Source of the DNA: Cyanidioschyzon merolae
Lineage: Eukaryota
Assembly (NCBI GenBank): GCA_000091205.1
Contig: AP006497.2
DNA: 64,000 nt
Direction: 5' to 3' (one strand)
Shown here: positions 20,157-38,629 of the stretch, one piece after another
Position numbering within the stretch: the stretch's first letter is position 1
Layout of the letters: each line of letters begins with the position of its first letter
Notes under the pieces: generated by a model
Told to the model about the DNA's origin: nothing
Seen by the model: only the letters and a program-made list of their open reading frames with translations
The model's database searches: none
Translations under genes and position numbers: made by a program

Positions 20157-21446
20157 CTAGCCACGCATTGCCATGGAGCCTTGGTAAATTTTCAAAAGGT
20201 CCTCAACATCCCTGGGGCTTCCGCAAATGAACGGCTCTCGCTGATGGACATCTCGCGGAACAATATCCAGAATTCTTTGCTTTCCCGTGGTCGCTATACC
20301 GCCGGCCTGCTCCATGAGATACGCCATAGGTGCGCACTCGTACAGAAGACGCAACTTGCCGTTCGGGTTCTTCTTATCACCAGGGTATCCAAAAACGCCG
20401 CCGTAAATCAGCGTGCGATGGACATCGCCAACGAGAGATCCTATGTAGCGCGAAGAATAGCCCTTTTTCTTCATCGATCGAATATATTCTTGAAGAACAG
20501 GGTCCCAGTTATCCGAGTTTGCCTCGTTGAAGGAGTAGATCTTGCCACGCTCCGGAACACGAACATCTGGGTGCGTCAAAACAAACTCGCCAATCGCTGG
20601 GTCCAGAGAAAAACCCTGCACTCCGTGACCAATAGACAGCATGAAAATCACCGATGAGGAGTAGAGAATGTAGCCCGCTGCCACCAGATTCGCACCCGGT
20701 TGCAGCGTCTGCACGAGGCACTGCATTTGTCGCTGACTTATATCCGCGTCCTCGGGTCCCGTCAGACAGTGCTCGCCGCTGCGCATTACACCAAAAATCG
20801 TACCCGTGGCGATCGCTGCATCCAAATTCGAGGATCCGTCCAACGGGTCAAACGCAGCAATAAAGTCACCTGTATACGCCTCTTCCATGAGCGACACTGG
20901 CTCGTTTTCCTCTTCCGAAGCCAAGACACCTAGTTTCCCTGTTGAGCGTAGCGCGTTCTTGAGCACCTCGTTCGTCAACACGTCCAGCTTTTTCTGCTCC
21001 TCGCCCTGCACGTTGACCGAGCCCTGAAGGCCAGTCAAGTTGCTCACGCCCGCTCGGGCGACCAGTGAGGCAATCTGCTTGCCAGCTGTCGCTGTGGCTG
21101 TTATCAAAGGAGCCAAATCAGCGGTCTCTGGATGCTGCCTCTCCTGTTGGAGAACCCACTGTCCGAGTGTCATGGGTAGGTCTAAAGCTGCGCGCAGTCT
21201 CACTGCACCAAAGCGACGTTGATGCCTTGTTTCCAGCGGCAAGACCGACACCGATACCCTTCCCCATATGTTTGTTGAGCGCAGCTTAGGAGCCCCAAGG
21301 CTAACGAAAGCGTGCGGTGCTTGCTTCGCCATGAATATCGTTGCTGGCTCCTTGAGGTCAGCAAGGAGATGAGTGCTGCAAACGTCGGGCGTCGCAGCGG
21401 CGGGCACGGCCGCAATCGTCGACGGCGGCTCGATCGGCTGCCGCAT
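20157..21446 (-). CDS. FBP: fructose-1,6-bisphosphatase, chloroplast/redox-regulated type
   Basis: Full-length FBPase: KKLDVLTNEVL, AAFDPLDGSSNLD, GKLRLLYECAPMAYLMEQAGG. It carries the plastid-type regulatory insertion GEHCLTGPEDADISQRQMQCLVQTLQPG with two Cys, where cytosolic enzymes have a short loop. A roughly 90-aa Ser/Ala/Arg-rich N-terminal extension resembles a transit peptide. Confidence 0.9.
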   Translation of the reverse strand: MRQPIEPPSTIAAVPAAATPDVCSTHLLADLKEPATIFMAKQAPHAFVSLGAPKLRSTNIWGRVSVSVLPLETRHQRRFGAVRLRAALDLPMTLGQWVLQQERQHPETADLAPLITATATAGKQIASLVARAGVSNLTGLQGSVNVQGEEQKKLDVLTNEVLKNALRSTGKLGVLASEEENEPVSLMEEAYTGDFIAAFDPLDGSSNLDAAIATGTIFGVMRSGEHCLTGPEDADISQRQMQCLVQTLQPGANLVAAGYILYSSSVIFMLSIGHGVQGFSLDPAIGEFVLTHPDVRVPERGKIYSFNEANSDNWDPVLQEYIRSMKKKGYSSRYIGSLVGDVHRTLIYGGVFGYPGDKKNPNGKLRLLYECAPMAYLMEQAGGIATTGKQRILDIVPRDVHQREPFICGSPRDVEDLLKIYQGSMAMRG

Positions 21447-21499
21447 CTGCGATTCGCCCCGTGCAGCGAACTAGCTTCTGTTCTTTCGAGGGGGTACAC

Positions 21500-22010
21500 T
21501 ACGACCCATCGGCAGATGCCTCCTCCAGGCCTTTTTCGACCGGCTCCTGCTATTCAGTTCATCTGCTCCGTGTAGACATCGATATTGAGAGGGTGCCTTA
21601 CAAAGGTAGAGGGCGTCAGCTCCGCGGGTCTCGTCTTCAGCACCGCACATCTGCTGATGTTGATAGCGGCGTTGAAGTCTCGGTTCAAGAATTCCAAGCG
21701 ATTATAGCATCTGGTGGAACTGATCAACGTAGGGGTTGCAAGAACTCGTGCCCTATGTGCCATTTGCTGCTCTTTCAGCTCTCTGAGGTTTTCAATCACC
21801 GAAGCGCTCCGCTGGATTTTGTCTTTCTCGACCTCCTGAAGTGTGCATCCCAGTTCATACCTTATTTTAAAATGAAAGCACTTGTTCATTTCCTTAGGTA
21901 AGGGCATTCCCGGGGCGAGAGGGACTTGCAGAAGAAAGACGAAACGTGCTCCAGCGTTACCGTGTGCTGAGCGCTTCAGCGATTCGCCCAGTGGAACGAT
22001 CGTTACGCCT
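21500..22010 (-). mobile_element. truncated TnpB/Fanzor-like remnant (copy B): C-terminal RuvC-III region plus conserved 3' flank
   Basis: ORF 21554..21907 gives ...NRLEFLNRDFNAAINISRCAVLKTRPAELTPSTFVRHPLNIDVYTEQMN. The upstream open frame adds ...KCFHFKIRYELGCTLQEVEKDKIQRS. The block is about 50% identical to the C-terminus of the long copy at 33946..35655. The shared 3' flank CCTTTTTCGACCGGCTCCTGC sits at 21527-21548. Confidence 0.6.
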
Positions 22011-23624
22011 CACGAACGGAAAGACTCCTTCAATGGCGTCGAGCCACGGTGTGTACGTAGTAATGAAATGCAACGCTACCTCGATAGAATTGGAAAAAGC
22101 TCGAACGCAAGGGGGATTTGTGAAACGCCACGTTGCCTATTGGAAGAACGTCTCCAGACATCAGTGTAAAAGCCTTCGATGGTTCGACGAAGTGTTTCGT
22201 GCTGTTGTATGAGCCTTCTGTACGAGCGAAATTTAATCCGCCACACATATCCACTGCTGCTAGAATAGAGAAGTTCGTCGTTCTCATCGAGTTCGATCGT
22301 ACGCATGGCAGGCTCCCTTTCCGCGAATACCCATATAGGCCCCGTTCTGTTCGCCCGAAGCAAGTCCCATCGACTGGAAAACAAACCGACGTCACTGTGC
22401 CTCGTATCGATGGTGACTTTCCAGGAACGCTTTCGTTGCGATTTCGGTGGATGATGGGTGTGAATAAACTAGGACTTTTTTTGTTACTGGATCGCAATGG
22501 TTCCAGGACCAGACGAAGAGGCGATTGAGAAACAGAGACGCTGCTCGCGGCTACTATTGTCGCACATGCATTCCGAACGGGATCAACGGGTCGTTTTTCT
22601 ATCATTGATAACAGTGAGTGTTTGAGAATATCGATTTTGGCGCGGAGTGTGTATCATTCGTTCTTTCAGGGCTCCTCAAAGATCAGAGCCCTGTGGTATG
22701 ACTGACCTGAACGGGGAATGCAGTACTCTTCGCACTGCTCTGGAAGGAATCCATCCGACATGCAAGTTGTCTACCATCTATAAGATACATTGCATACTGA
22801 TGCCGATCTCATGCTATAAACCGCAGCGAGGACCGTACAAAATAGCGTTGAAAGACTTTGAGTCCGATCATATTCCGTTTCCAGAGTCGTAGGAAGATAA
22901 ATACGGTGTCCATTGCTGTGCATTGCACCGAGTATCTCGCTTCCATGAAACGAATCAGAGTGAGCTGCAACTCCTACGTGTCGCCTGCTTGCTTGCTTGC
23001 TTGTTTGCGAGCCAATACGTATGTGCCACAGTGGAATGGTGCACCTTCGTGGCCACCTATGCATCGTATGACGTTCCGCAGCTAACGTGTATGCATCGCT
23101 GCAGACGCTTCGCGATGTCGAGCGACGGGATCGTACGGTGAAGGGATACCGGAGCATCCAGGGATGCAGCTCGCCCTCTCTACGACATATGGACGCGTTT
23201 CACGCACGCTGGAGGTCAACGTGCTTGAGTGACACTGTTTCTGGTTGATCCCTGCAGGCAGCGCAGCAGGAGGCTCAGCGTTTCTAGATCTAAACCAGGT
23301 CGAGTGCGAGCGGCACGATTAGAGAGCAGACCCTCCGTGGTGTGCGATACTCGCGTTCCGACGACTTGTGCTGCATAACGCTCCTCGAATACGTTCTCAG
23401 GTTACATCTTTAGTTTCGGTCCAGGTTGTACCAGCATTCGCCAAACTGTTGAAACTCGAAACTGATCTTTCGAAATCGCTGCGCTCGCCCGCATCGAGTC
23501 ACTTTCAGCCGGCCGAAACTTCACGACGGAGACCTAGTATTCTTCAGGGAGCCTCAATGCACCCACATTGTCATACGTTATTCACTTAACTGGCTAGAGT
23601 GACTATGGAAGAGCTGGTTCTGCA

Positions 23625-26072
23625 ATGTCGGAAAACGCTTCCACAAAACGACGACTGGAGTCACGGCGACACCGCAGCATTCCAGCAAGCTGCTGCATCC
23701 CAGGGCATTGCGGAGAGGTGCACGTCGTGGATCCTTTGCGTACACGTCGGGTACTGCACGTCATGTTCGCCACTGATTCGAAGGAGAATTCTAGGTTGAT
23801 TGTGAAAGGATTTGCTTCCTACATCTCCGAGGAGCGTCTACGAGCACACTTCTCAAGACTTGGTGATGTTACGGACGTGCGGGTTTCCCGGACGGCGAGC
23901 GGGCGCTCGCGGGAGTTTGGATTCGTCGGTTATCGAACACCTGCGGAGGCAGCAGCAGCCAAGGCATTTTTTGACCAAACGTTCCTAGATACTCGTCGCA
24001 TAACTGTAGAGTATGCACTTCCTCCGCGATCACCGGCGCTAGCCGAGAGGAAACGTTTTCATGCGGAGGTTTCTGTGGACAGGCGGCAAGCAGCAGCCAC
24101 CGCCCGTGCTGGCGAAAGAAGACCCCCAACGCTGACTGCAGCGGAGAACGAGCACCGCGGTGCAGAGGTGCACTCTACGAGTGACCACGCTGTCGAAACC
24201 GCTGGCAAAACCGGAACACTCGAGGGGGTACCTCGAGATCAGACAAGAACGAGTCAGACTTCGCTGTGGCATGCCGCACACGCGACCTGGGGTCAAGAAA
24301 CGAGCGAGTCGGAGCCACGTAAGGTGCACAGGCGACCGGAAACGACTCCGTCGCGTGGTCGTCAAGCTGCTGACGAGGGCAGCGCTGTCTTGCTCGCGGA
24401 CTCGCCTGATGATCAAGCGCTCTCGCGTACCGTTTCCCAAACGGAACCGCCGACCAGTGCGGTATCCGCCTCGTCTGCATCTTCAGGAGCAGAGCAGGTG
24501 TCTTCCCGTGCGGAATCGATGGCGTCCGCTTCTAAGGAATGGAAGTTGTGTCGGTCTAGTCGCATCTTTATTCGAAATCTGGGGTTTAACGTAACTTTCG
24601 AAGACCTGGAGAAGTTGCTTGAACCTTTCGGGGAACTCGAAGATGTCCATCTGGTTCGGGATCGGGAAAGCGGCCAGTCGCGCGGCTTTGGGTTTGCACG
24701 CTTCAAGACCGTAACCTCTGCGCAACAGGCAATGGACGCCTTGGACGGGTCAGTGTACCAGGGACGCCTTTTGCACATCATGCCATCCGAGGCAGACCGG
24801 TACGAACTGGATCAGAGGTCGTCTCTGGAAACCGAAGGCAAACGCAGAAGCTTTAGCGTGGAGCGCAAACGGCAGCGTCGTCGAGAAGCCGGCACCACAA
24901 AGGACACCATTTCGTGGAATCCGTTCTTCCTGGGAACTGATGGCGTTTTAGAGACGACCGCCGAGCGCTTTCAGATGTCCAAAGCGCGCTTTCTCGGTAC
25001 CGATGCGCTAGAAGGGGGGATTTCAGCCGCCGTGCGGCTCGCTGTTGCCGAGTCGAGTCTGCTGTACGAGGTTCGCGAGGCGCTCGCCGAAAGCGGAATC
25101 AACGTGCAAGCTTTGCTCGATGAACAAACTCGGCAGCGAAGGGCTTTAGATCGGAAACAGCTCTCCCGAACAACGATTATCCTGAAAAACCTTCCGGCGA
25201 GAACAACGTCTGCAGACCTAGGACCAAAGCTCGGTCGCTACGGTCAACTTGGACGATTGGTGGTCGCTCCCGGGGGCCTTATAGCATTCGCCGAGTTTCT
25301 CGACGAAAACCAGGCCAAGGCAGCATTTCGGGGGCTCGCTTACACGCGTTACGCTGATCTGCCGCTCTATCTCGAGTGGGCACCTCGCGGCATCTGGGCC
25401 GACCCAACACCTCCCAATGGAGACGATATCGCCGAAGCATCGCCCAAAGCTTATGCTTCTGTTGACGACTCTGGATCAGGTTCCGAAGAACCGCCTCCGA
25501 ATTGGTCCCAAACTTCGCTTCTGATTCGTAATTTGAGCCTTGACACGACAAGTGGCATGCTAGTCGAGCATCTCGAGTCCTTGGGCGTGCGACCTCGAAT
25601 CGTGCGCATACCGCTGGATGAGGAGACCCCCAGTATGGATTCCCGGAGTCCAAACATTCCATCGAAATACGCTTTCGCGGAATTTGCAACTTGCAAAGAG
25701 GCCTGGCGCGCTCTTCATATCCTGGATGGATCGGCGCTGCGGGGCCACAGACTCTCCGCTGCGCCCAGCGAAAAGCACGTCACGAGTCGAGTGGCGGCCT
25801 CGGAGACCGCGGTTGTCCCCGAGGCTGGCAACGAAACCAAACTTATCATCAAAAACATTGCTTTTGAAGCGAGCAAACGGGAGCTACATCAGCTATTCAG
25901 TTCCTTCGGCCATGTGAAGTCGCTTCGACTACCAAAGAAAGTCGATGGCAGTGGACGAGGATTCTGCTTTGTGGAGTACGCAACGCCTCAAGAAACAGCC
26001 CGGGCCACAGCACTCGTCCAGGGCACTCATTTCTATGGAAGGAAACTCGTAGTCGAATACTCCCATCTTTGA
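23625..26072 (+). CDS. MRD1: multiple RNA-binding domain protein MRD1/RBM19 (pre-rRNA processing), five RRMs
   Basis: Five RRM domains are present: SRLIVKGFASYISEERLRAHFSRLGDVTDVRV; RIFIRNLGFNVTFEDLEKLLEPFGELEDVHLVRDRESGQSRGFGFARF; TIILKNLP...; SLLIRNLSLD...; KLIIKNIAFEASKRELHQLFSSFGHVKSLRLPKK..GRGFCFVEY. The likely true start is the internal Met near 23763 (MFATDSKENSRLIVKG). Confidence 0.85.
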   Translation: MSENASTKRRLESRRHRSIPASCCIPGHCGEVHVVDPLRTRRVLHVMFATDSKENSRLIVKGFASYISEERLRAHFSRLGDVTDVRVSRTASGRSREFGFVGYRTPAEAAAAKAFFDQTFLDTRRITVEYALPPRSPALAERKRFHAEVSVDRRQAAATARAGERRPPTLTAAENEHRGAEVHSTSDHAVETAGKTGTLEGVPRDQTRTSQTSLWHAAHATWGQETSESEPRKVHRRPETTPSRGRQAADEGSAVLLADSPDDQALSRTVSQTEPPTSAVSASSASSGAEQVSSRAESMASASKEWKLCRSSRIFIRNLGFNVTFEDLEKLLEPFGELEDVHLVRDRESGQSRGFGFARFKTVTSAQQAMDALDGSVYQGRLLHIMPSEADRYELDQRSSLETEGKRRSFSVERKRQRRREAGTTKDTISWNPFFLGTDGVLETTAERFQMSKARFLGTDALEGGISAAVRLAVAESSLLYEVREALAESGINVQALLDEQTRQRRALDRKQLSRTTIILKNLPARTTSADLGPKLGRYGQLGRLVVAPGGLIAFAEFLDENQAKAAFRGLAYTRYADLPLYLEWAPRGIWADPTPPNGDDIAEASPKAYASVDDSGSGSEEPPPNWSQTSLLIRNLSLDTTSGMLVEHLESLGVRPRIVRIPLDEETPSMDSRSPNIPSKYAFAEFATCKEAWRALHILDGSALRGHRLSAAPSEKHVTSRVAASETAVVPEAGNETKLIIKNIAFEASKRELHQLFSSFGHVKSLRLPKKVDGSGRGFCFVEYATPQETARATALVQGTHFYGRKLVVEYSHL

Positions 26073-26972
26073 AAGAAACCATCCCACAAAACAAAATGAC
26101 GACTTTGGCAGCGGGAGCGACTCGTTGGCAAGGATGCGCACTTGTTCCGCGTGTTTGCCGCTCGATGCCGGGCCTTTGCACACAAGCGGCGCCTCGGGCT
26201 GAGGCCGTGACCGCCGCACCACCACGATGGGACTCCATCTCTAGTCCAGACGATCCTAGGCGTGGTCTGCGCTCCCTTTGGCTGGTGTGATAATGTGCAT
26301 TCAATGTCCAGTAGATGAGGATTATCGCAGAGAGACGTGAAACACGCTCCAGTTCGCTGGCCATGCATTTCAGCGGCAGTCTCGACAGCGCCGCTGGAGC
26401 GCCCGACAAGACCCTAATCTTCATGATAGCGGTAGGCACAGATGATACGGGTAGTATTCGCAGCGTTCTTGGCTTGTCTGCGGATACCCCAGAAGTGCAC
26501 GAGCGACTCGGACGCACAACAGGGACACGCAGTCCAAAATGCATGTCCAAGCCTGTTTCCTGCAGCGACGCAGACGCTCCCAGCAACAGCATCGTCGTTG
26601 TGTGCGATCCGCGACTCCAAAACCGAGAACCGCTGCTGGAGTTCACTTTTCGGCCATTTGCCTGTGATATGGTGCTGGTCCGGTACCCGACGTCAGTTCT
26701 GAATCGTGGTGAGCACTGCGTTTCCAGCTTTGAGGCGAGTACCAGGAAACAGGCTCGGCGCCAGCACAGGCGTTTACCTTGCCTGCTCTTTCTGGTACTG
26801 TTCAGTATCCGACTTGTGCCAGTTCCTACAAAGTCAGCGTGTAAACACTGAAGAACGAAGAACGAACGTGCTGCTGGTGCTCGTGTCGCCAGAGAGTCCA
26901 GAAGACCTGCCGAGTCGCCCACGTCAGCTGGTGCCTGCTGGTGCCCGCTGTCCAGACGACCAGGGGCGCGCG

Positions 26973-27245
26973 CTACGAGTCTCCCGGTTCGGCAGCGTTG
27001 ACCTCCTCTATGGTGTCTATCCAGTCCGAGTAGACATCCACCGGCTCGCTCAAGCTGTTTATAGCGCACTGATAACTGGCCCCGCACACGCCACACTCTA
27101 AACGCCCGCGCATGGGCACCGTGCTTCGGTCCAGGAGCACCTCCACGGCTTTCGGTTGGTTGCAGAACGGACAGTCGAACCGCTTGTCCAGCTTTGGCTG
27201 AACTCGCTTCACTACTGGTTTCGATGACTTTTTGCGCTTACCCAT
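26973..27245 (-). CDS. ELOF1: transcription elongation factor 1 homolog (ELOF1/Elf1), zinc-ribbon
   Basis: MGKRKKSSKPVVKRVQPKLDKRFDCPFCNQPKAVEVLLDR...GRLECGVCGASYQCAINSLSEPVDVYSDWIDTIEEVN is a near-perfect match to the ELOF1 family (FTCPFCNH...CxVC...ITYLSEPVDVYSDWIDACE). Confidence 0.85.
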   Translation of the reverse strand: MGKRKKSSKPVVKRVQPKLDKRFDCPFCNQPKAVEVLLDRSTVPMRGRLECGVCGASYQCAINSLSEPVDVYSDWIDTIEEVNAAEPGDS

Positions 27246-28030
27246 GGAGTGGTCCAGCGGACATCCACGTCAGCGACCAGCACCTGCGACACAGCAGCGC
27301 TCGTACGGTCAACGTGGTGCGGCACGACGCACCAGGCAGCCGCGAGAGGTACGGCGTCATTCGCGTGCGAAACTGTTGCGAGGCTGCTCCACATGAGCGT
27401 CTACAGGGCGCACCATACAACAGATGACGGAACACGCAAATATATTCGGAAGCGATCGTTTTGGGTCCTGAGGAACCGCCCAACCTCTCTGCATCAAGTC
27501 CTTGTCGAGGTAAGCGTGCTGTTCTATCGACAAAATCCGGCGATTGTCCAACTGTATCGACTCTGTTGCAGGGCCTGCGCGGCCTATCGGCACTGCCGCC
27601 CCCTGGTGATGCGTCCACGGAGGTAGCGTCCAGCATGCAAGGTTATTTCGGTCTGTAGCTTTCCGCGGCAACGATCCCACTCGGTGACTACAGTCGTCGA
27701 ATGGCGACACCTTCCCTGCTTCACGTGCGAGGCGCACTCCAGAGCATAACACCCGCATTCCTCCATAGCGTTGCCCGCTGCGAACGTTTGGCGTTCCGGG
27801 GATTACGCTGACCCTCGCAGCGTATCGATCCCCTGGGGTCGATTCATTCGGAGCTGCGCAGCAGTCCTCGAGTTCAACGCGCTGCCTGGAAAAGCTCAGT
27901 ACGGTGGTAGCGGATCAAGTTGCTATTGACGCCGGCGCACGGCACCCGGAGAGCATGAACCAGTCATCCATCCTGTTCTGTCGTAGCTGACGAACCCAGA
28001 TAACGGCGATTTGATGCTCGTAGTCGACGC

Positions 28031-28885
28031 TTGAAAGGTTGCATCCTCCGCAATGAAGAGCGCCGTCTAATGCCCGGTGCAGGGCGCGATGCATCACATC
28101 CAGGGACAACGAGTTCTGCTTCGAGCCGCCTCTCTCATGCGGGTTGCGCAACGGAGGGATCCCGCCAGGCCCCATGTACCTCGAGTGCTGCTCACCGTGT
28201 GATGGGCGACCACCTGGAGGCGTTCGGTCGTCGAGCTCTTCAGGCTTTTTGCACCCCGGCAGCGTTCTGGACGAGCCACCGCAGTCAGACGCGGCGTTGC
28301 GAGCGACCGCGCCCACAACGTTGCCTTCGACGGTGCCAGAGGCGCGAGCAGCAGTGGTGCCGTGTTTCCCCGGGAAGGTGTCTCCGGCTCGAGTTGGCTC
28401 AGAGGGAAACCGTAGAAAAACGGAATGAATCGTCTTTAGCACGTGTTGTATTCCGATATTTTGATCAGTGGAACAAGCGGGAAATCGCGGGTATCATTCC
28501 GCTCTTTGCTCCGGACGTGTTCTATGAGGACGCGCTTTATCCCAGAGCGCTTCACGGGCGAGAAGCGCTTGCTGAGCACCTCACTAAAGTAGCTCGTGTC
28601 TTACCACCTCAACTAGAGTTTGTAATCGATGACGTTTGCGAGGATCTCGAACGCGGCAAATGTGCCGTTCGGTTCCACCTCGAAGATCGTCGTACGGGGA
28701 AGCAGGTTCCCTTTTCGCGCGGGACTTCGTTTTTCACCGCAAAAAGAGCTCCGGACGCTCCTGAAGGCTGGTTGCTGACCTCGGGATGGGATCTGCCGGA
28801 ACCCCTCATCAAGGCAGGGAACGTTCTGCTCGCCATGGCTGGTATTGCTGCGCGTATTCTCGGGCTCTTTCGGCGGAGAACCTGA
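28031..28885 (+). CDS. NTF2-like/SnoaL-like (ketosteroid-isomerase fold) domain protein with long basic N-terminal extension
   Basis: The C-terminal ~130 aa (ARVVFRYFDQWNKREIAGIIPLFAPDVFYEDALYPRALHGREALAEHLTKV...FVIDDVCEDLERGKCAVRFHLED...GTSFF) has the SnoaL-like polyketide-cyclase pattern. The N-terminal ~150 aa are Arg/Ser-rich, so the start is uncertain. A 40-bp direct repeat straddles the stop (28803-28842 and 28907-28946). Confidence 0.5.
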   Translation: MKGCILRNEERRLMPGAGRDASHPGTTSSASSRLSHAGCATEGSRQAPCTSSAAHRVMGDHLEAFGRRALQAFCTPAAFWTSHRSQTRRCERPRPQRCLRRCQRREQQWCRVSPGRCLRLELAQRETVEKRNESSLARVVFRYFDQWNKREIAGIIPLFAPDVFYEDALYPRALHGREALAEHLTKVARVLPPQLEFVIDDVCEDLERGKCAVRFHLEDRRTGKQVPFSRGTSFFTAKRAPDAPEGWLLTSGWDLPEPLIKAGNVLLAMAGIAARILGLFRRRT

Positions 28886-29760
28886 GACACGAGAGCTGGG
28901 TACTGCCAAGGCAGGGAACGTGCCGCTCGCCATGGCTGGGAATGCTGTGCATGAGTTTGAGCTTTTGTCAGGTAGAGGACCTGATGCATGTTGGCAAGAT
29001 ACTGCGCTTCTGCACAGATCTCAGGGCGTGCGCCTCTGCTTGTTAGAAGTTGTCTACGCAGCCGTGTTATCCCTGAACACAGGACGCAGCATCTCAGAGG
29101 CCGCAAGTATGTGCTTGAACGTGGTGCCGGCTTGGCATGCGGCTCCTCGAAATGTTTTTTCTTCGGTATGAAGGGTGCGGCTCCTGGGTGCAACGAGAAA
29201 TTTCTTTTACATACAGCTCGCGAAGCCTGATCACGCTGCACATGATCCCGAGGTACCCTGAGCACCGAGCCTTGTCTTCTTTTCTCACGCCATGTGCATG
29301 CTGCTGTTCCGTCTTGTGCACGCTTCACGAAAGCAGCGGGTCCCAGAGTCGCAACCCCCTCGCTATCCGCCGAAGCAGCAGCGCTGAACCTGCCGCAACC
29401 TGCATGATACAGATCCCATACGAAAGCTCGTTTCATACAGTTTCTGATGCGCCGCCTCTCGATCGAGCAGCGCGAAATGAGAGGTACCTGCCACTAACGC
29501 CACCACCGCTGATCCAGCAACCCGTCTGTCGTAAAGAAACCCTCTTCCAGGCACCGTGTATGCCGTAGTAACGGAGCGTGCGCGCGCGCTGTGAACACGC
29601 CCATCGCGCCGTCGAGATGCAGACGCACCAGCGCGATGGCGCGCAATCGCGGAGTACGCCCCAGCGGTGCCGCATAGAGTGAATCACGAGTCCGTTGATA
29701 AACGTCACTTTTTGCGACTGGTGGTACTGGTGTCTCGAGCCAGCAAAGTGTGACTGAAAC

Positions 29761-30759
29761 ATGAACCTTACGCTTCTGAAACGCATCATCTATACCCTAG
29801 TTTACAGACCGCTTGGTTTTCTCTATCTTTTCTTTGGTGTGTTTTACGGGCGGTTTGTGCTTCCGAAACAACCTGCGTTGACGTTACTGCGGCCGTACGT
29901 TGACGACCGGACGGTCGTCGTCGTGACCGGCTGCAACGTTGGCATCGGCTATGAGGTCGCGCTTGCGCTTTCAAAGGCTGGTGCGACAGTGTTTATTTGC
30001 TGTCGCACGGAAGAAAAATGTAGTGAGACTATCAGGCGGATCAAGCAGCAAGGGGGGCGCGGGCAGCTCAAGCCTATCAAACTTGAGCTGTCCTCGTTCG
30101 CATCCGTCCGCGCTGCTGCCGATGCGATTAACGCGCAAACAGCCTACATTGATTTTCTTGTGTTAAACTCGGGTGTGATGAACATTCCGAAGCTGGAATT
30201 TTCGGCCGACGGCTACGAGATGCACTTTGCGGTGAACCACCTCGGACACTACCTCCTAACCAGACGCCTGGTTGCTAAAGTGCGAAAAGGCATCGTCGTT
30301 GTTAGCTCTGATGGACATATCATGGGCGCTACTGATGCGATTGATGATATAAACTGGGATCGACGTGGACGGGAGAACTATGACGGCATGGTCGCGTATG
30401 CGGACACGAAAATGGCGAATGTTTTGTTTGCTGCTGAATGCAATCGGCGGTACCCTTCGATCCGCACTGTTGCGGTACACCCCGGCGCAGTACTGACCGA
30501 GCTCATTCGATATTCCGTGAAACCGGAGGCACAGACGCGTCTTCGCCAAATTCTCAAGTATATTTTTCGAACACCTGCGGAGGGAGCACTCGTCGTGGTG
30601 GCAGCGCTTGTGGCTACCGCCGTGCCTTGCGCCGGAAAGCGTGCGCCTCTTTTCTACCGCGACGGCCGGCCGAGCTGGGCAGTTGCGGAAAACGATGTTG
30701 CTGCAGCGCAGCATCTCTGGGACGAGAGCGAGCGCATCGTCCGCAACTACCTCACCTAG
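29761..30759 (+). CDS. short-chain dehydrogenase/reductase (retinol-dehydrogenase/WWOX-like SDR) with N-terminal membrane anchor
   Basis: VVVTGCNVGIGYEVALAL is the TGxxxGIG cofactor motif. NSGVM, VVSSDGH and the YADTKMANVLFAAE active-site YxxxK follow, then VAVHPGAVLTEL. A hydrophobic N-terminal helix is present. Confidence 0.85.
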   Translation: MNLTLLKRIIYTLVYRPLGFLYLFFGVFYGRFVLPKQPALTLLRPYVDDRTVVVVTGCNVGIGYEVALALSKAGATVFICCRTEEKCSETIRRIKQQGGRGQLKPIKLELSSFASVRAAADAINAQTAYIDFLVLNSGVMNIPKLEFSADGYEMHFAVNHLGHYLLTRRLVAKVRKGIVVVSSDGHIMGATDAIDDINWDRRGRENYDGMVAYADTKMANVLFAAECNRRYPSIRTVAVHPGAVLTELIRYSVKPEAQTRLRQILKYIFRTPAEGALVVVAALVATAVPCAGKRAPLFYRDGRPSWAVAENDVAAAQHLWDESERIVRNYLT

Positions 30760-30871
30760 ATTTGAATAGAAGCAACTTGTGCGGGAATATTTTTAGCATG
30801 ACAAGAAAAAAGGGATATTCAAGGCGTTGGAGCGGAATCTCGGCCTGTTTTGATGGAAGATCCGTAACAAG

Positions 30872-30895
30872 ACCGTCGTCGTCGTCGTCGTCGTC
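30872..30895. repeat. (GTC)n trinucleotide repeat, about 8 units
   Basis: gtcgtcgtcgtcgtcgtcgtcgtc read directly from the sequence. Confidence 0.8.
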
Positions 30896-31102
30896 GAATG
30901 CGAGCAAGGTCCGCAATTGTCATGGATGAAAACCTGCTCGACCATTTTTCCTGCTCGTGCCGTAAACTAAAAAAATCGAGAGTGCTCTGGATCGTGCGTT
31001 TCCAGGACGATTCCGCAACCTTCACAAGGCACGTGGCGTCGCCGATGTGGATCGTGCCCTGCACGGCCAACGGCATACGTGGTCTCCGAGATGCTCCGAA
31101 TA

Positions 31103-31633
31103 TTAAAAGAGGTTGCACAGACCGAAAACGCATCCCCAAGCGAGGCCCATGCCAGCACCCCAACCCATGCCCCGAACACATGCGTTGCAAATGCCCTGAG
31201 AGACCTCTGATCGAGAATGCGACGGTGGTACCTGGCCAGTCGCCGTTTGATCGTCGTACTGGTATCGTGTGGGCTGCGCGGCCTCGCCTGCCCTGTTGCC
31301 CGGATAAATGGGTGCACCAGTTGGTCGGTAGACTGGAGGCAGAGGCGCGTACGGTGTGCTTTCTGTATAGTAGTAGTAAGCCCCAGGTGGCGGCTGAACG
31401 CCGGGCTTTCCGTCAAACTTTGCTGGCTCAGGCTCGGCGGCTTCTTCAGCATAAGCACCTTTAACCTCCTTTTGGGCCGAGAAACTCTGGGCCGGTTGCA
31501 CCGCAAAGTCCGGGCGTGTTACAGGAGCGCTCGTTGTATCTGGAGCGCTCCCAGCAGCAACCGCAGCATAGCTTGTCGCCGGCCTGTCGGGGTGGTAGTA
31601 GTAGTATGACATAGACCTATTTGAGTCTGACAC
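31103..31633 (-). CDS. Tyr/Pro-rich small protein with C-terminal Gly/Cys-rich hydrophobic tail (CYSTM-like, tentative)
   Basis: 176-aa ORF. The N-terminus is rich in Y, P and Q (MSYYYYHPD..., PPPGAYYYY, PLPPVYRPTGAPIYPG). The C-terminus GMGWGAGMGLAWGCVFGLCNLF resembles the CYSTM module GCLAALCCCCLLDxCF. Overlapping antisense ORFs lower the certainty. Confidence 0.35.
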   Translation of the reverse strand: MSDSNRSMSYYYYHPDRPATSYAAVAAGSAPDTTSAPVTRPDFAVQPAQSFSAQKEVKGAYAEEAAEPEPAKFDGKPGVQPPPGAYYYYTESTPYAPLPPVYRPTGAPIYPGNRAGEAAQPTRYQYDDQTATGQVPPSHSRSEVSQGICNACVRGMGWGAGMGLAWGCVFGLCNLF

Positions 31634-32106
31634 GGTTGAAAATATCTAGCTCTTTCTCGTGCACGCTAGTTTGAGCGCTGTGTGGCGTCTGGAACTGTTG
31701 CGCCCAGCTCAAGGAAACGCACAAGTGTTACAGTCGGATTCGTTGGCACAGTTCGACTATAAGAAGCCCAGCTGTAGGCGGAGGTTTCCTTCGCTGAGGC
31801 GTTCACGCACTGAACGAGTGTCAACGTTCAGCGCGCAAACTTTTCCTAGGGCTATTTTTTCTCAAACACGCGAAGCTTCGATGGCGCCAGAATGTCGACG
31901 CTAGCCAACCGCGTATCTGTATCGTCAACGTGCTTGTTCCGCTTACGTCTTCGCGTTGAAAGAGCATTCGACATAAAACGAAGATTCGACGACGGAATTC
32001 GGGAGCGTCCGCGGGAGACACGCGGTCGGGCGTCGTGTCCAATTTGGGCCGTGCCTCACGCGCAACGTGTCCGGCGGATACAGACATGCGCGCGCACGCA
32101 CGCACG

Positions 32107-32122
32107 CGCCGGCCGGCGCGCC
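32107..32122. repeat. 16-bp perfect GC palindrome (CGCGCCGGCCGGCGCG) inside an (ACGC)n-like GC tract
   Basis: Read directly. It lies at the left boundary of the lower-GC block that holds the TnpB/Fanzor-like copies. Confidence 0.6.
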
Positions 32123-32425
32123 TGCGAGCTAACTACGTCATCGTCATGCACCGCAACTGGATTCCATAGACAGGCGCGTGTCATCTCATGCTCTTTCGAG
32201 GTGTAAGGCAGACGCGTTCGATTGCGTCTATTTAAAGTAATATAAAATCCAAGGTATGGAGATGAAAGTCGGGGATCCTGGCGGACCGTCATCGCCGGGC
32301 GCCCGGAAAAACGAAAAAGTCCTCTTCTCGCCTGTCATCGAGCGAAGAAGCGCAAGTGACGTAGATGAAGAAGAGTGGAGATAGTCAAGAAAAGGTGCTT
32401 GATCCACGAGACGATGACGAGACTG

Positions 32426-32700
32426 TAGTGGCACAGAGGGCACGAGTTCAATGAGCCCCTGCGATCATGGGTTCAACCACCGGCAATGTACGCGAAGAAT
32501 TTCGTGAACCGTGACCCCAACGCCGCCATGAATATAACACGACGTGTGGTGCTGGACACGAGTCCCGCGGAGCTGAGGCACTCTAGTTTTGTGAGGAAAC
32601 CGCTCAAGGTCGAATTGTGCAAGAAGAAGTAGAAACCAGTAGCAGGTGACCGGTCAAAAAAAGGCGGGGCGGTGTCGGCGAGTGGGTATGCGTACCCCGC
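32426..32700 (+). mobile_element. truncated TnpB/Fanzor-like remnant (copy C): RuvC-III region plus conserved 3' flank
   Basis: Plus-strand frame gives ...AMYAKNFVNRDPNAAMNITRRVVLDTSPAELRHSSFVRKPLKVELCKKK* (stop near 32630). This is colinear with copies A and B. The 3' flank GCAGGTGACCGGTCAAAAAAAGGCGG at 32641-32670 matches the flanks of A and B. Confidence 0.55.
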
Positions 32701-33945
32701 TCTACGGTCGTGAGCCATTTTTCGTCTTGCTGAGTATATATATGGACGCTAGTGGAGGCGATGACTTAAACTACGCATAAGCGACATTCCGCGGGGATGT
32801 TCCCGAGGGCCTTGTCCTGATGTGTTACCCGGTATCGCGCGCTCCCTGACCAATGTTTCAGTTTGCCGGGCAGTAGGTGAACCAGCCAGCTATCCAGCGG
32901 GTTGTTTAGGTACAGGCATATTACATTCCCTTAAATTCACGAATCTTTTTAAGGAATCCTCTTGTTTCATACTACTACTTCCGTGCTTTTCGCGCTTAAA
33001 CTGAAATGCGCACAGAATACTCCGTCATGGATACCGATTGCGCAGCGCCTGCTTCTCTTCCACATGCGTGTGTCTCGGACCTAAAAAGTGCAGTATTTTG
33101 CGGTTATCCTGGAGTGTCGCCCTATCCACCGCAGAAGTAAACTCGTCCGGTGCCTGCTTCTTCCGATGCGCTGCGGCTGTACTGAACAGCAACGCCCGCT
33201 GAGACGCGGTCGTTGTGGAGTATTCACGTCGCAACCCAGCCAAGCGCAGCTTCCATACAAGGAAAGAAAGCTCTAGCGTCTCCTTTAAGTGTTGCCGACG
33301 TTGCGTTGGGGAACACCACTGGCCAGTTCGACCTTGGTGATGCGCCCGCCCATCTTCATGATCCGCTGCTGCTCGCTGTACCAGGAAGTGAACGGCACCA
33401 TCTTCGTTGTCGCAACGTTCTGCAACTCGCGACCGCTGTCAACACGTGACTGACTGGGCAGCACATACGAGACCTTAAACATGCGGCGATCATTCGCAAC
33501 GCCAGATGACTTGATGCGCCGCGGTCCGAGGTTCCCCGCGCTGCTCCCGTTCATATCGTACCCTGTCATGCGGACGCTCCAGGACGAGTGTGCCAAGCAC
33601 CGCTGCGACTCTGCAGACTTTGCAGAAGCCTTAACACCTGTTCCAAAGAAACTGGTCTGAACGAACATGGTCAACGAACGAAGAAACACAGAGAACAAAG
33701 ATATCGCGAAGTTGTGAGTCAAAAGACGGTGGTGCAGCGAGCGCAGCCGGCGAGCTCGCTTGCGTATTCTCGCCACGTTCTCGCCGGCCGTGTACAGTAG
33801 TGGCGATCGGCGCGCCTTGGACAAAACGTCTCCAACTGATGTGCAGACGCCTCCCCGTCTTTTTGGACCGGCCACCAACTACTTCTTCCAATTTTATCTC
33901 ATATAGTTCGACCTTAGAAGGTTGTCCAAAAAAGTACCTTCTTGT

Positions 33946-35655
33946 TCACTCTGGAGGTCTCGTCTCCAGCACCGCACATCTCCTGATATTGATGGCAGCG
34001 TTAAAGTCTCGGTTCGCAAACTCCATACGTTTCTTACCATCGTTGGTTGTACTTACTAATGCAAGTAGCCCTCGAAGTTTCGCCCTCCTTTCCATTTGCT
34101 CTTCCGTCAGCGGTCCGTACTTTTTTGCATCCTCAGGGCTCCGCTGGCACTTTTCCATCTCCACTCTCTGGAGCGTGCGCCCCCGCTCATGGTGTGAATG
34201 CGATGTTCGAAACTCATCTATCGGTATTGTAACAAAACGCCGTGCGCACTCCTTATACGTTCTCGTCGTTGGAGCTGGTGCAGTCCCTTTTTGGGTCTTC
34301 CATCGCCCTGCTCCGTACGCTACTACGAGCCTCTGACTTTCATCCTCCTTCAGGGCACTCAACTGATTGAAAAAATTCGCGAACGCCCGCTGCTTCCCAC
34401 AATACAAGTTCATTCGAAGACGAGCCCACCGGGGCTTGGTATACTCCTCCCACAGCGCATCCCAATGGGCAACACGAACTTCCATGAATTTCCGAAAAGC
34501 TTTAAAGTCCGCTCCTCGACTCATCACCTCGCTCAAAGCTTCCAGGTGCTCGTTCATTCCTGAATTTCAAGTCTCGATTTTGTTCCTTGCATTCATGCTT
34601 CCCGATTCTCGATAATATCTCGCTCTCGAGAACCTCAACAGACGCATGTCTTTCTGACATAAGTTACCGTCAGGACCATCTTCCGCACGCTTCGGTGCTG
34701 CGATGGTGATGATATTTGTGTTGCCGGGGTCCGCGCCAATGACAAAGTCGTTATCCTGCACTTTCCGCGTCTCAGGATCTGCTTCTTTCTCATCTTCATC
34801 CTTCGTCACCTCAACGACATGCACGTTATCCTGCACCTGCTGCATCGCAGGATCCTCCTTTTCGTTTTCTTCATCCTTCGCCGCGTCAACGACAAGGTCG
34901 TTATTCTCTACCTCCTGCGTCGCGGGATCCGCCTCCTCCTTTTCCTCATGGTTCGCCGAGGGCGGGACTGGTCGATCTCTCTTCAACCGCCGATAGTGTA
35001 CACACAAGGCTACTCCATCGGTTTCGATTAACCCAGTGGACAACTTTTGCTTGCTCACTCTCAGACGTTTGGAGCTGAAGATATTCTTCCAGGACATCTC
35101 CCGGTTTTCACCGGAAAACTCCTCCCTGCTAACATCGAACTCGGGACTGATCTCCTTCATGATGCCATGAGGGATTCTGGAGTCGATAGTCACGAAATGT
35201 GACTTGATATTGGACATTGGAACGACGTTGAAGCGCTTCTCCTTTAGGACAGCCTTCCTTTCCTCCCACTCTAAATTTTCCCTATTCAGCCTCATCTCTG
35301 CTTTGCGTTCGAGCTCTCGGTCGAGAAATACGAAATATCGCAGGAAAAGGCGATAGTATCTTTCCTTATCTTTTTTCAACTCTGATATCTTGTCTGTTGG
35401 ATTCGCCATCCCCAAGATTGCACGGTGCGCTTGTAGAACCGCGCGGATTACAGAAGCCTCATTCGTGCTCTCGTTTGACCCCTTCTCTCCGGCGAATTCG
35501 ACCTCATCTTGATGCTTACGATCTTTCGTGATGCCATTCATAATCGCCCATTTTCCATTGCGCGATAGGCCCGGGTAGAGTGCAATCACGGCGCGTATCA
35601 TGAAACGTTCGAGGCTCGTTGTCAAATGGTTCTTCAGGTTCGTGAGGTACTTCAT
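33946..35655 (-). pseudogene. TnpB/Fanzor-like RuvC nuclease (OMEGA-family, eukaryotic Fanzor-type) gene, recently pseudogenised (copy A)
   Basis: ORFs 34567..35655 and 33946..34557 share one frame and are split by a single TGA. The first ORF contains the RuvC-I motif DFVIGADPGNTNIITIA. The second contains a TnpB-like zinc-finger region with Cys replaced (FVTIPIDEFRTSHSHHERG, compared with V.KVNPAYTSQTCSCCG) and the RuvC-III hallmark MEFANRDFNAAINIRRCAVLETRP. A second TGA sits where copies B and C have Leu. The same frame stays open upstream to about 36084 (ORF 35794..36084), interrupted by TAA and TGA. The putative RuvC-II Glu appears replaced (LVVAYGAGRW). Confidence 0.7.
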
Positions 35656-36989
35656 CGCTCCGCATGTGTAAATATCCCGGTGACTCTTGTACCGACGAAC
35701 CCGTAAGAGGGATGTTTTTCGTGGAAGGCATGCACTAGCTCATTTTTCCTCCGCGCTTCCTCTGTACCAAGCATCAGGTGATGAATAAAGGTCTTATCGA
35801 AAAACCCGTCCGGGAACCTCGACCGTTTCCATGTGCGTCACGTCGCGATACATCTCCCTCGCCAAATACATCAGTCCTGACGACGCCTTGACAATACTCT
35901 TGGAGTACGAGTCGACACGTTTTTTGATAGCGTCTCGCAACTTTTCGCTGTACGGATCCTTGATATATCCAAGAAGAAAGGTTTTCACCACCTTCTCGTC
36001 GTACAGCCGTCTTTCTTGCTGCCTTCGACGTAGGGCCTCCCCCTTTTGCTTCTTTTCCTCTTCCTTTTCTTCTGGAATGGGCACTGTTTTTTGTTTTTTC
36101 TCCAGCAGCCGGCGACCCTGGGCCTCCAGGATCGTGAACTTGCTTTTTCACAGCTTTCCTTGTTTTGTTTTTTTTTTGAAAAAGAACGCTCTTTGAACCC
36201 TTCTGTTATATACTGCAAAAAACACTAGACTAGACTTGTTTGAAGTTTGAAACAAAAACGAACTGAAAGACTGTACTTTGCTATGACCTCAACGGAAATC
36301 CAACTTTCTACAGCTGAACAACACGCTAGAGATCAGGATCGCGTTTCCGTTCAACGGAGGCATACGCGTCGTGTCTCATGCCTGCCTGATCTCCCAGTTG
36401 CGCTCACTGAGCGCGATGCGTGCACCGCGCGAGACGCCTCACCGATCAATAAAGGACACGTGTCCGACACCCTGCATTGGCACGTGCGTGTTCGCATCGC
36501 ACTGCAGCCAAAATAACGTATCGTAGATCGGAAACTCACGTAGAATGCACTCCTGCTATAGGCTATGTCGTTGGTGCCTATCGCAGTGCCGCCCTGAAGC
36601 ACAGTCGGTGTTGTGGCACGCTTGGATCTCCATAATGCCTCCAGAAGAAGCGTAGCTTTCGCAGCGGCTCACGCTTGTCTGGATGAGGTGTGCATCACAC
36701 TAGCCTTGAAGAGTTTCGTTAGTTTTATTGATCGTAACCAAAGTAGGCATATTAGTGTTCCCGAACACGGCTACAAGTTTATTCCCTATGCTTGTTATGC
36801 ATGCTGCACGGACGCTGCAGGGAGTATCTAATTTGAATTGTGCTTCTATCCTGCGTCATAGGCTGGTACTGATGACAGCTCAAGTCATTTCCATGCTGCT
36901 TTCGTTGTCTAAATTATGGTGCCTGCTTCGTCCTCCGGATCCGGTGATCTTGGCAGAGGCAGAGCACACTCGACGGGCCCTTTGCTATC

Positions 36990-37125
36990 GGTTTCAGCTT
37001 CTCCTTGTTCAACTCTGGGCTGGGAGGTTCCCCCATAAAGTTGGACCGCGTCAGCTCCGCCGATCGCGCCTCCACCACCATACATCATCTGACATTGATG
37101 GCGTTTTGTCTAAAACGCTCGTGAT
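36990..37125 (-). mobile_element. highly degenerate TnpB/Fanzor-like remnant (copy D), frameshifted
   Basis: Minus-strand frames give ...LYHERFRQNAINVR* and, at +1, CMVVEARSAELTRSNFMGEPPSPELNKEKLKP. Together these are colinear with NRDFNAAINISRCAVLKTRPAELTPSTFVRHPL in copies A to C. The antisense signature RSRLHHHTSSDIDGV is visible in ORF 36728..37156. Confidence 0.4.
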
Positions 37126-37497
37126 AGAGCTGAGGTCAAGAAGCGATCAATCTTGACCGACGCTATCAAACGAGCGGTAACAGAAGCTGAGGGCTGTAGC
37201 CGGCACCAGGTGCTCTGGTGCCTACATGCTGGCCGTGAATCGTGCGTGACGAAGCCGCACAGCATGCCACGGTTTCCTAGTACGTAAACCAAGCACGTAT
37301 TCGAAACGTTCGGGTTCAGTGTGATGACGAGTCGCCGCTGCGGCATTCTGGGAAAATCATCCGAGTGCGCTATGGTTTTTCGAATATCGAGCATCATCAC
37401 GAGTGTGGGTGCGCTTCACTGCACGAGTTGCAACGATCACCGAATCCACCATCATCCAAAAGTGACGAAAATTCACATGCGCACCGGCCTCGCACCT

Positions 37498-37877
37498 CTA
37501 GGTCAGGACGTGCCCACCAGCACGCAAACAAATTTCGTGCCCCGCTGTGCTTTCACCAAAAACGAAAGGAAACATGCGTTTCCTCGACCAGGGATAGAGG
37601 GTTCCGAATTCCTTCAGATACTGCCGATGTTTCGCCCGAACCCAGACCAGCATCTGCAGTGTGCCCACGAGCATACACAGGATGCCTGCGATTGTTCGCA
37701 TCATCGAGATCAATCCTACGCACGCCAGTACCTCAAATATGCAGTTCGGATACGACACGAACTCGAAAAGCAAGCCGAATGGGATCCGCCACCAGCGGCG
37801 ACCGCGAAACCCGATTGCAAACCGCTCCCGCAAGCCATTTGGGCAAACGAGTGGTGCAGCGCGCATGTTCATATAAT

Positions 37878-37916
<39 letters not shown>

Positions 37917-37935
37917 TGCAAATACCCCACTGCAT
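37498..37935 (-). CDS. possible fragment of an ICMT/PEMT-like membrane methyltransferase C-terminus (very tentative)
   Basis: WVRAKHRQYLKEFGTLYPWSRKRMFPFV resembles the EE.L...FG..Y..Y...V...IPF C-terminal motif of the isoprenylcysteine/phospholipid methyltransferase family. The poly-Leu stretch is just the antisense reading of the CAG repeat. The frame is not continuous with the upstream ORF. Confidence 0.2.
37880..37912. repeat. (CAG)11 trinucleotide repeat
   Basis: cagcagcag...cag read directly. It is read as poly-Gln, poly-Ala or poly-Leu in overlapping ORFs, and lies just upstream of the MPV17-like start. Confidence 0.85.
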
Positions 37936-38629
37936 CTGCGCAGTTCCTGGACCAGCACCGATGAGGCACGTGCGGGGCAGTCCAGCCGTGCAGGCTGTTG
38001 CTAACTTATACGATCGGTACCTTCGCAGCCTCCAGCGATACCCCGTAACTACAAAGTCGCTGACTGCTGCCTCGGTTGGTGCTGCAGGTGACGCGTTGGC
38101 GCAGTTGCTCGAACGTCGTCAGCGAACACCGACAGCTGAGCGATTGGGAGACCCTGGTCCACAGAAGCCGTTTAACTGGCGAAGGCTAGTGTTATTCGCA
38201 ACGTTCATGGGTGTCTTTAGCGCACCAGTTTCTCATTATTGGTACCTTTGGTTAAGCAAACGCTTTCCCGCAACCAATATGGTAGCGGTTAGCAAACGCG
38301 TTGCCTGTGATCAGTTGCTTATGGCGCCGACAATCATCCCGGCAACACTGTTTTTTCTCGAGTACGCCGGGCGAAAGTTTGTCGCTGGAGAGAATGGTGA
38401 CGGCCTGTTGCGACACGCCTTGCAGGTCGCAAGCGAGGAAACCGGTCGTACGCTGCTGGCGAACTGGACGATATGGCCTATAGCGCAAGTTGTGAACTTC
38501 CGCTTCGTCCGCAACGAGCTGCAGGTCCTGTTCGCAAATCTGGTCGGTGTGGGATGGAATACCTTTCTCAGCCTTGTCGCTGCCGAAAACCTGCAGAAAA
38601 GCCATAAAACATTGACGAAAGCTGATTGA
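37916..38629 (+). CDS. Mpv17/PMP22-family peroxisomal/mitochondrial inner-membrane protein
   Basis: LYDRYLRSLQRYPVTTKSLTAASVGAAGDALAQ...WRRLVLFATFMGVFSAPVSHYWYLWL...VSKRVACDQLLMAPTIIPATLFF...TIWPIAQVVNFRFVRNELQVLFANLVGVGWNTFLS matches the Mpv17/PMP22 family along its length. The likely start is the Met near 37961. Confidence 0.8.

Follow-up and report, generated by a model that had tools for sequence, protein, structure and literature searches.

Four dead copies of a Fanzor1-type transposon in Cyanidioschyzon merolae and a candidate guide RNA in the 3′ tail of their family

Results

Four copies of one repeat family

The DNA analysed here, a 64,000-nucleotide (nt) stretch of contig AP006497.2 of the red alga Cyanidioschyzon merolae (the window), carries genes of eukaryotic type with few introns, encoding FBPase, an MRD1-like RNA-binding protein, Elf1, a short-chain dehydrogenase and a CpcD-domain protein, together with four pieces of a transposon family that we assign to Fanzor1 and that is the subject of this work. 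An initial annotation had described four copies (A–D) of one TnpB/Fanzor-like family with a conserved flank beyond the stop codon, which it read as a candidate guide-RNA scaffold or transposon end. The four copies were indeed recovered by tblastn with an intact 752-amino-acid homologue (P0001), which located A at 36003–33925 (minus strand), B at 21859–21599 (minus), C at 32498–32593 (plus) and D at 37102–37031 (minus), and which was 70% identical to copy A across residues 28–752. A repeat search independently paired B with C (160 nt, 72%, 21532–21691 with 32501–32660), this pairing extending 22 nt beyond the B stop and 28 nt beyond the C stop, and likewise paired A with B (81%).

That A, B and C remain similar beyond the stops of B and C was confirmed on the post-stop stretches alone, which gave local alignment scores of 33 (A consensus with B), 40 (A consensus with C) and 31 (B with C), whereas shuffled stretches scored 15 ± 2 with a maximum of 27, so that none of 300 shuffles reached the observed values. 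The coordinates given for the shared motif are correct in all three copies (33873–33861 in A; B and C as below), and the GGGT..ACCC hairpins reported behind B and C are present. Copy D had been described as frameshifted, but it carries an in-frame TGA instead. The features of the four copies are as follows, the stop positions being derived in a later section.

33817–36151, minus strand: copy A, a near full-length Fanzor1 pseudogene, from the start-codon position (GTG; ATG in the intact locus L001) to the subfamily-stop position
33883–33891, minus strand: codons TTG GAA GAA of copy A at the canonical-stop position, placed by the gapless nucleotide alignment of A, B and C and by the C-termini of 31 homologues
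33855–33883, minus strand: post-stop motif stretch in A, AGTAGTTGGTGGCCGGTCCAAAAAGACGG, which reads VVGGRSKKT in the frame of A
33817–33819, minus strand: stop position of the A subfamily, occupied by TAG or TAA in 48 of 81 copies, with CAA in its place in copy A
33790–33805, minus strand: conserved non-coding box CGCCACTACTGTACAC, with a mean diversity of 0.15 compared with 0.254 at synonymous core sites (p = 0.07)
33746–33788, minus strand: terminal hairpin GCCGGCGAG ... CTCGCCGGC, just 3′ of which homology among copies ends
36152–36969, minus strand: 5′ non-coding part of element A, including a module of ~600 nt (36969–36373) present only in some copies
21554–21859, minus strand: copy B, a 3′ fragment of a divergent subfamily, with TGA at 21556–21554, 43 residues past the N of NRD
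21492–21553, minus strand: post-stop stretch of copy B common to A and C, with the motif at 21548–21527 and the hairpin GGGT..ACCC at 21507–21492, where similarity to C ends
32486–32632, plus strand: copy C, a short 3′ fragment, with TAG at 32630–32632, 41 residues past the N of NRD
32633–32697, plus strand: post-stop stretch of copy C, with the motif at 32641–32670 and the hairpin GGGTA..TACCC at 32684–32697
36970–37125, minus strand: copy D, a 3′ fragment of a read-through subfamily, cut inside the motif (..GGCCCGTCGA) and abutting the 5′ module of element A

Element A as a whole spans about 36969 to 33746 on the minus strand. Its three-frame translation contains the motifs GADPGNTN, IDEFRTS and NRDFNAAINI, and is interrupted by in-frame stops at 35796–35794, 34569–34567 and 33948–33946 and by frameshifts near 36060 and at 35800–35650. 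The TGA at 33948–33946 is a premature nonsense codon that precedes the position of the B and C stops by about 20 codons; at the latter position the TAG of C aligns with the TTG of copy A, and the TGA of B follows two codons later. Copy D holds the beginning of the motif (..GATAGCAAAGGGCCCGTCGA) up to its cut at 36970. Between the N-terminal half and the RuvC domain, the open reading frame (ORF) of copy A also contains three 75-nt (25-residue) tandem repeats (..KEADPATQEVEDNDLVV..) at 34737–34961, the number of which varies from 2 to 6 among the aligned homologues. The window loci are four dead transposon copies in intergenic DNA, a result that is ordinary for the window itself. B, C and D are inert remnants: without the distal tail and the end of the element, they cannot serve as genes for a guide RNA.

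Assignment to Fanzor1

A first protein search returned about 40 fragments and the single intact protein P0001, all of metagenomic origin and without useful annotation. With P0082, an intact but divergent member, as the starting point, a second search uncovered a wide family of proteins of 590–707 residues, for which an exhaustive profile search yielded 2041 clusters at E ≤ 0.001. The wide profile, which includes the window family, matched the solved Fanzor1 structures of Parasitella (PpFz1, 9cf0, E = 6.5e-19), Spizellomyces (SpuFz1, 8gkh, E = 1.5e-13) and Guillardia (GtFz1, 9cer, E = 6e-4). Within this profile the RuvC catalytic columns D484, E656 and D725 are nearly invariant and stand in the order D...E...D. 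The TNB (zinc-ribbon) domain PF07282, expected between RuvC-II and RuvC-III, scored above its cut-off in one homologue (P0166; 27.1 compared with 26.3 bits) and reached E = 0.09–0.23 in the window family, where the cysteine pattern is degenerate (HH..C...C). Narrower queries were uninformative: a profile restricted to the close family gave a best E of 0.42 against the structures in the PDB, phmmer with P0001 gave no match there, the Pfam and NCBIfam models had no significant match in the window pieces or P0001 (none from the NCBIfam TnpB models), and an AlphaFold2 model of P0001 built from 42 sequences had a mean predicted local distance difference test (pLDDT) score of 43, too poor for a fold search. 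On the profile matches and the catalytic residues, the repeat family in the window is assigned to Fanzor1.

The family is abundant, with more than 260 matches in metagenomes containing the alga and a pairwise diversity among copies of 0.14–0.25. A Fanzor1 family, CMe-1A, was described in C. merolae by Bao and Jurka in 2013 (PMC3627910) as an element of ~3 kb with ~150 copies about 80% identical to the consensus, some with intact ORFs. Its 5′ 635 bp are in common with TE-N2_CMe, no terminal inverted repeats (TIRs) were found, target-site duplications could not be determined, and the class of transposable element was unknown to its authors (PMC3627910).

The canonical stop codon and the start of the 3′ tail

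The place where the protein ends decides how the sequence shared by A, B and C is to be read. All of the 31 diverse full-length homologues compared stop 40–45 residues past NRD (mode 42–43), as do B and C, and in the alignment with PpFz1 the match extends to the final 2 residues of the deposited chain. The stops of B and C are therefore at the canonical C-terminus, and consequently the common post-stop stretch is the start of the ancestral 3′ untranslated tail. We accordingly dropped the notion of the motif as plain ancestral coding sequence with premature stops in B and C, since the proteins of the wide family normally end there.

Among 81 non-redundant tails of the A subfamily, the commonest first in-frame stop was a TAG located 65 residues past the N of NRD, and a TAG or TAA occupied this position in 59% of the copies. 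The A and D subfamilies have lost the canonical stop, and their frame reads about 24 codons into the tail. In the A subfamily the motif falls within this frame and is read as VVGGRSKKTG. The initial annotation had named a continued coding frame as a case that would undo its proposal; with a frame open over ~24 codons in most A-subfamily copies, this case applies at least in part.

Identity among A, B and C was 75–88% in the catalytic NRD..RP segment, 59–71% in the last 22 codons and 62–72% in the 52 nt after the stop, and dropped to 45–70% beyond these.

The 3′ end of the element

With copy A as query, homology to 80 loci stopped sharply at 33775–33792. In the multiple alignment the subfamily stop is followed by a hypervariable loop, the conserved box, a short spacer and a long imperfect hairpin, after which the copies are unrelated, giving copy A a tail of ~145 nt from 33891 to 33746. 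The hairpin occurs in three sequence variants with many G·U pairs, and in 43 of 48 copies the sense strand forms the more stable version (mean −21.3 compared with −15.8 kcal/mol). The sole match to the box within the window is in copy A, and B, C and D have neither box nor hairpin. The motif is hence not the transposon end that had been suggested, the real end lying 70–130 nt further 3′ and being absent from B, C and D. Of the two termini that further copies had been expected to define, the 3′ end could be located in this way from the 80 loci, but the mosaic structure of the 5′ region left the 5′ end without a definable position.

At the 5′ side, homology reaches 36969 in six loci (L032, L042, L046, L055, L063 and L071) and stops at 36373–36421 in most others; the module so delimited matches the 5′ 635 bp like TE-N2_CMe described for CMe-1A (PMC3627910). 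Some copies have the ~600-nt module of the window and others have another conserved module, longer than 330 nt; the two classes have in common only the last ~200 nt before the start codon (further loci listed for this mosaic region are L003, L009, L013, L016, L031, L037 and L066).

Distal tails also occur without any Fanzor coding sequence. In L032, L042 and L046 such a tail is made up of GGAAGCGTCTGCAC..., the box and the hairpin. Its starting nucleotide, immediately 3′ of the motif, is common to the three loci, and unrelated conserved sequence precedes it. The unit common to these ORF-less repeats therefore excludes the motif. In four loci (L032:1170–1500, L042:860–1190, L046:730–1060 and L063:1775–2217) a tail is followed by ~170 conserved nt and then by the 5′ module of a full element; this upstream tail has the same orientation as the full element, and is ORF-less in L032, L042 and L046 and stands behind a Fanzor 3′ fragment in L063. 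Its counterpart in the window is the truncated copy D (36970–37125). Two further loci (L040:73–5523 and L039:1061–4754) contain three to four Fanzor 3′ fragments within 5.5 kb, two of them abutting tail to tail.

Relatives carried by Tc1/mariner elements

Three intact homologues (P0139, P0140 and P0142) are encoded directly downstream of a DDE_3 (Tc1/mariner) transposase gene, and the homologues at the loci L103–L110, which come from metagenomes of brine and other sources, are carried by Tc1/mariner (DDE_3) elements that have TIRs and insert at TA. L103–L108 represent six independent insertions of one element with the common end ..TTCATTTTCATGAGTA followed by TA. The proteins of L103 and L109 share 72.5% identity and their synonymous third positions 54%, whereas a 119-nt core of the 183-nt 3′ untranslated region (UTR) is identical at 111 of 119 positions (93%). 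The non-coding segment from the stop to the right end of the relatives is under strong selection, and the UTR core of L103–L110 is a clear omegaRNA candidate in its own right. The 93% identity of this core compared with 54% at synonymous sites also makes a guide RNA in the tail of the window family plausible.

Inspection by eye had suggested motifs common to the A, B and C tails and to the UTRs of L102, L103 and L087 (GGCGGTCGGTCC, TCTAGGGC and TACTGTA..GGCGTCG), but these proved to be at chance level in shuffle tests and were rejected. A Pfam scan of six ORF pieces of copy A found no DDE domain, no TIR was seen at the ends of the window-family element, and its tail has no significant similarity to the right end of the relatives.

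Folding of the tail

An Rfam scan of 21000–37600 at E ≤ 1 returned two chance matches only. For a trimmed alignment of the tails, RNAalifold paired the beginning of the motif, CAGUAGUGGGUGG, with the box, as well as GAGGCGUCU with AGACGUUUU; the sense strand gave a fold energy of −45.6, compared with −35.7 on the antisense strand and −31.4 ± 3.7 in column shuffles. Individually, the 147-nt tail of copy A folded with z = −3.3 relative to shuffles and the intact L001 tail with z = −2.4, while the tails of B (z = −0.6) and C (z = +0.3) folded no better than shuffles. The same held for the conserved UTR cores of the relatives, which makes folding energy a poor test for an RNA of this kind.

Two structural candidates were rejected. 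The trimmed-alignment fold, with the helices P1 (CAGUAGUGG/CCACUACUG) and P2 (GAGGCGUCU/AGACGUUUU), has no covariation support, and P1 is absent from the ORF-less tails; as these tails miss the motif, the predicted long-range helix with the motif cannot form there. The GGGTA/TACCC hairpin of B and C was considered as a compensatory version of AGACG/CGTCT in A, but the two occupy different alignment columns.

Neighbouring genes and other features

The window encodes an Elf1 protein with the same sequence as C. merolae 10D BAM81593.1, its FBPase shares a 90% cluster with BAM81591.1, and the JGI metagenome contig L002 carries the window locus at 99% identity. The ATG of the CpcD/phycobilisome-linker-domain gene lies on the same strand as copy A, 77 nt downstream of its end (33668–33746), and a look-up with this gene, aimed at diverged orthologous loci, gave no match.

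Copy B lies just upstream of the FBPase gene (21332–21492). In the C. merolae 10D-type FBPase contigs L098 and L099 homology to the window ends at 21348, so that the first 38 codons of the 429-residue ORF and copy B are lineage-specific, and the true start of the FBPase ORF is probably the ATG at 21332–21330. An empty site for copy B was sought in these contigs and not found, the divergence lying at 21348 and not at the end of B.

Elsewhere in the window, about 8 tandem copies of a 143-nt unit with 92–97% mutual identity (family D1) occupy 5684–6841, and a CAG repeat at 37868–37922 encodes a polyglutamine run in the ORF 37321–38004. A weak tblastn match to Fanzor residues 594–639 (E = 0.05) at 9781–9918 on the minus strand is possibly a fifth, older Fanzor remnant.

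Discussion

We read the window loci as one near-complete pseudogene (A) and three 3′ fragments (B, C and D) of a non-autonomous Fanzor1 transposon, in which the post-stop stretch is the proximal part of the 3′ tail and the tail of active copies is an omegaRNA, an interpretation that we favour by a modest degree. The omegaRNAs of Fanzor1 and TnpB are encoded at the 3′ tail (PMC10432273). From this position of the tail, the analogy with characterised Fanzor1 systems and the conserved UTR of the relatives, active members of the family probably encode a guide RNA there. By the same analogy, the tail of active copies would be transcribed as an omegaRNA and bound by the Fanzor1 protein. The scaffold would consist mainly of the distal tail, from GAGGCGTCTGCAC through the box to the terminal hairpin, and the host sequence just beyond the hairpin would serve as the guide. 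Fanzor1 with this omegaRNA could then cut matching DNA and so aid the persistence or spread of the element. As candidates for a guide RNA, the distal 110 nt and the terminal hairpin rank above the motif, an RNA function of which received no computed support. The scaffold proposed in the initial annotation is partly supported, as regards the Fanzor1 family, the position of the tail at the canonical stop and the conservation of the UTR in relatives; it is weakened by the open frame of the A subfamily, the folds of B and C, the position of the real end and of the ORF-less tails 3′ of the motif, and the points that follow.

Several observations weigh against a guide RNA in the tail. On the full alignment of 48 tails RNAalifold predicted 0 pairs. 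The covariation that was looked for in the 3′ regions was likewise lacking, as counting pairs on the trimmed tail alignment of the copies gave values at the level of shuffles: 87.2% of the predicted positions were paired, compared with 86.9 ± 0.2 in shuffles, and double-sided changes numbered 7 with 5.4 expected. This lack of covariation is what a consensus-derived fold gives on mostly dead copies. When the terminal hairpin was removed, the folding of the copy A tail fell to z = −1.2, and the terminal hairpin could itself be a transposition signal at the DNA level. Third-position diversity in the overlapped tail (0.245) equalled that of the core (0.254), so that an added constraint on the nucleotides is not apparent. 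Nor do the conserved UTRs of the relatives have any significant similarity to the tails of A, B and C. As to its identity, the family fits CMe-1A as judged by the published description of that element.

The stretch could instead be a real C-terminal extension of the protein (..LEAVVGGRSKKTGRRLHVSWRRFV, basic and resembling a nuclear localisation signal), the B and C stops being secondary truncations, which we regard as possible but doubtful. The frame is open in A-type, D-type (L088 and L063_1775) and L040_5460 copies, a TAG or TAA recurs at one position in most of the A subfamily as described above, and the length of the extension is unchanged in 65 of 71 copies. Diversity in the extension was 0.245 at third positions compared with 0.196 at first and 0.180 at second positions, and by direct reading the GGRS codons vary between subfamilies mainly at third positions. 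This periodicity is marginal, however (p = 0.063), when set beside the catalytic core with 0.254 at third and 0.08 at first and second positions, and the A-subfamily TAG is among the most variable positions nearby (0.35, 0.25 and 0.43). Furthermore, B, L026_2729 and L040_5460 retain the downstream nucleotides in shifted frames, and with 31 of 31 homologues ending at the B and C stop and the PpFz1 alignment running to the end of the chain, parsimony places the ancestral stop there. The motif might also be functionless, its similarity being no more than the leftover common ancestry of incompletely diverged copies, a view to which we attach a similarly low probability. It accords with identities after the stop that are close to those of the weakly constrained last codons and fall off further out, with tail diversity near the level of synonymous sites, with the missing covariation, with B and C tails that fold like shuffles, and with ORF-less tails that begin 3′ of the motif. 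Yet the subfamilies differ by 12–25% in NRD..RP and by 29–41% in the next coding segment, and an unconstrained flank would be expected to be less similar than coding sequence, not equal to it; moreover, the relatives clearly conserve their UTR at the same position.

A further explanation concerns the distal tail and not the motif: the box and the terminal hairpin may form a single-stranded DNA transposition signal of the HUH, Helitron or IS200/IS605 type, with the 3′ fragments arising from one-ended or 5′-truncating replication. The three hairpin variants with many G·T pairs that work on one strand only, the clustering of 3′ fragments in L039 and L040 and the recurrence of tails directly upstream of long elements would agree with this, as would the Fanzor1 elements of Chlamydomonas, which are passengers of Helitron2 with intact 3′ ends and often truncated 5′ ends (PMC3627910). 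We nevertheless hold it to be unlikely, given that no Rep/helicase or Y1 transposase turned up near any copy (no search was aimed at a Rep partner), that no 5′-TC or CTRR-3′ ends were seen, that Tc1/mariner elements with TIRs and TA target sites carry the closest intact relatives, and that the loci were gathered via the C-terminal motif, which makes the excess of 3′ pieces partly an ascertainment effect. These three explanations, by protein extension, common ancestry and a role at the DNA level, are not mutually exclusive. Within the guide-RNA interpretation, a bolder and rather improbable variant is an unusual guide RNA into which the reading frame has recently grown: stop loss would have added ~24 codons over the 5′ scaffold, the Tc1/mariner TIR would have been exchanged for a long strand-specific hairpin, and the elements found downstream of tails could reflect tail-directed, possibly RNA-guided, insertion or homing.

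Fanzor1 is the eukaryotic counterpart of TnpB and Cas12 and is under development as a genome editor, work that profits from every new guide-RNA architecture. A native pair of Fanzor1 and guide RNA would be directly testable in C. merolae, a model alga that combines genetic tractability with a tiny genome. To this the present analysis contributes the true 3′ end of the family, the position of its canonical stop, the stop-loss extension in the main subfamily and the strongly conserved UTR in the relatives borne by Tc1/mariner elements.

Among known systems, IS200/IS605 elements are prokaryotic insertion sequences with a Y1 TnpA and a TnpB of ~400 residues, with a guide RNA that shares sequence with the 3′ end of the gene and extends as far as the end of the element. 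The window element has the RuvC nuclease superfamily and subterminal hairpins in common with them. It differs in being eukaryotic and nuclear and without TnpA, and in a protein of 600–750 residues, twice as long, with Fanzor1-specific N-terminal domains. Helitron2-type non-autonomous elements are characterised by a 3′ subterminal hairpin, a 5′ hairpin with asymmetric TIR, insertion after T-rich sites and a Rep/helicase partner; in the window family a 3′ hairpin was observed, and the mosaic 5′ region gave no definable 5′ end. The Tc1/mariner elements that carry Fanzor1, a class described by Bao and Jurka, encode proteins 40–55% identical to those of the window family and ending at the residue where copy B ends, but have their own upstream DDE_3 gene, the ..TTCATTTTCATGAGTA end beside TA and the 183-nt UTR, none of which is present in the window family.

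With CMe-1A the window family shares the host lineage, a single Fanzor1 ORF in a ~3-kb element, many copies of ~80% identity, some intact ORFs, an optional 5′ module of ~600 nt and the lack of terminal inverted repeats, whereas the published description of CMe-1A contains no 3′ tail, hairpin or guide RNA (PMC3627910). In the Fanzor1 systems with solved structures the omegaRNA lies between the stop and the right end of the element or reaches across the stop (PMC10432273, PMC11423790). The SpuFz1 omegaRNA determined by Saito et al. comprises a 75-nt scaffold and a 14–15-nt guide, and ORF-less ‘ghost’ loci keep this region (PMC10432273), which the ORF-less tails of L032, L042 and L046 resemble; the omegaRNA of GtFz1 overlaps its ORF by 17 codons (PMC10432273, PMC11423790). 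SpuFz1, GtFz1 and PpFz1 thus correspond to the window family in a homologous protein, a tail at the omegaRNA position and ORF-less tails, and differ from it in that the omegaRNA is here predicted from sequence and that the window family has no TIR and ends in a long hairpin, stop loss having carried the A-subfamily frame ~24 codons into the tail.

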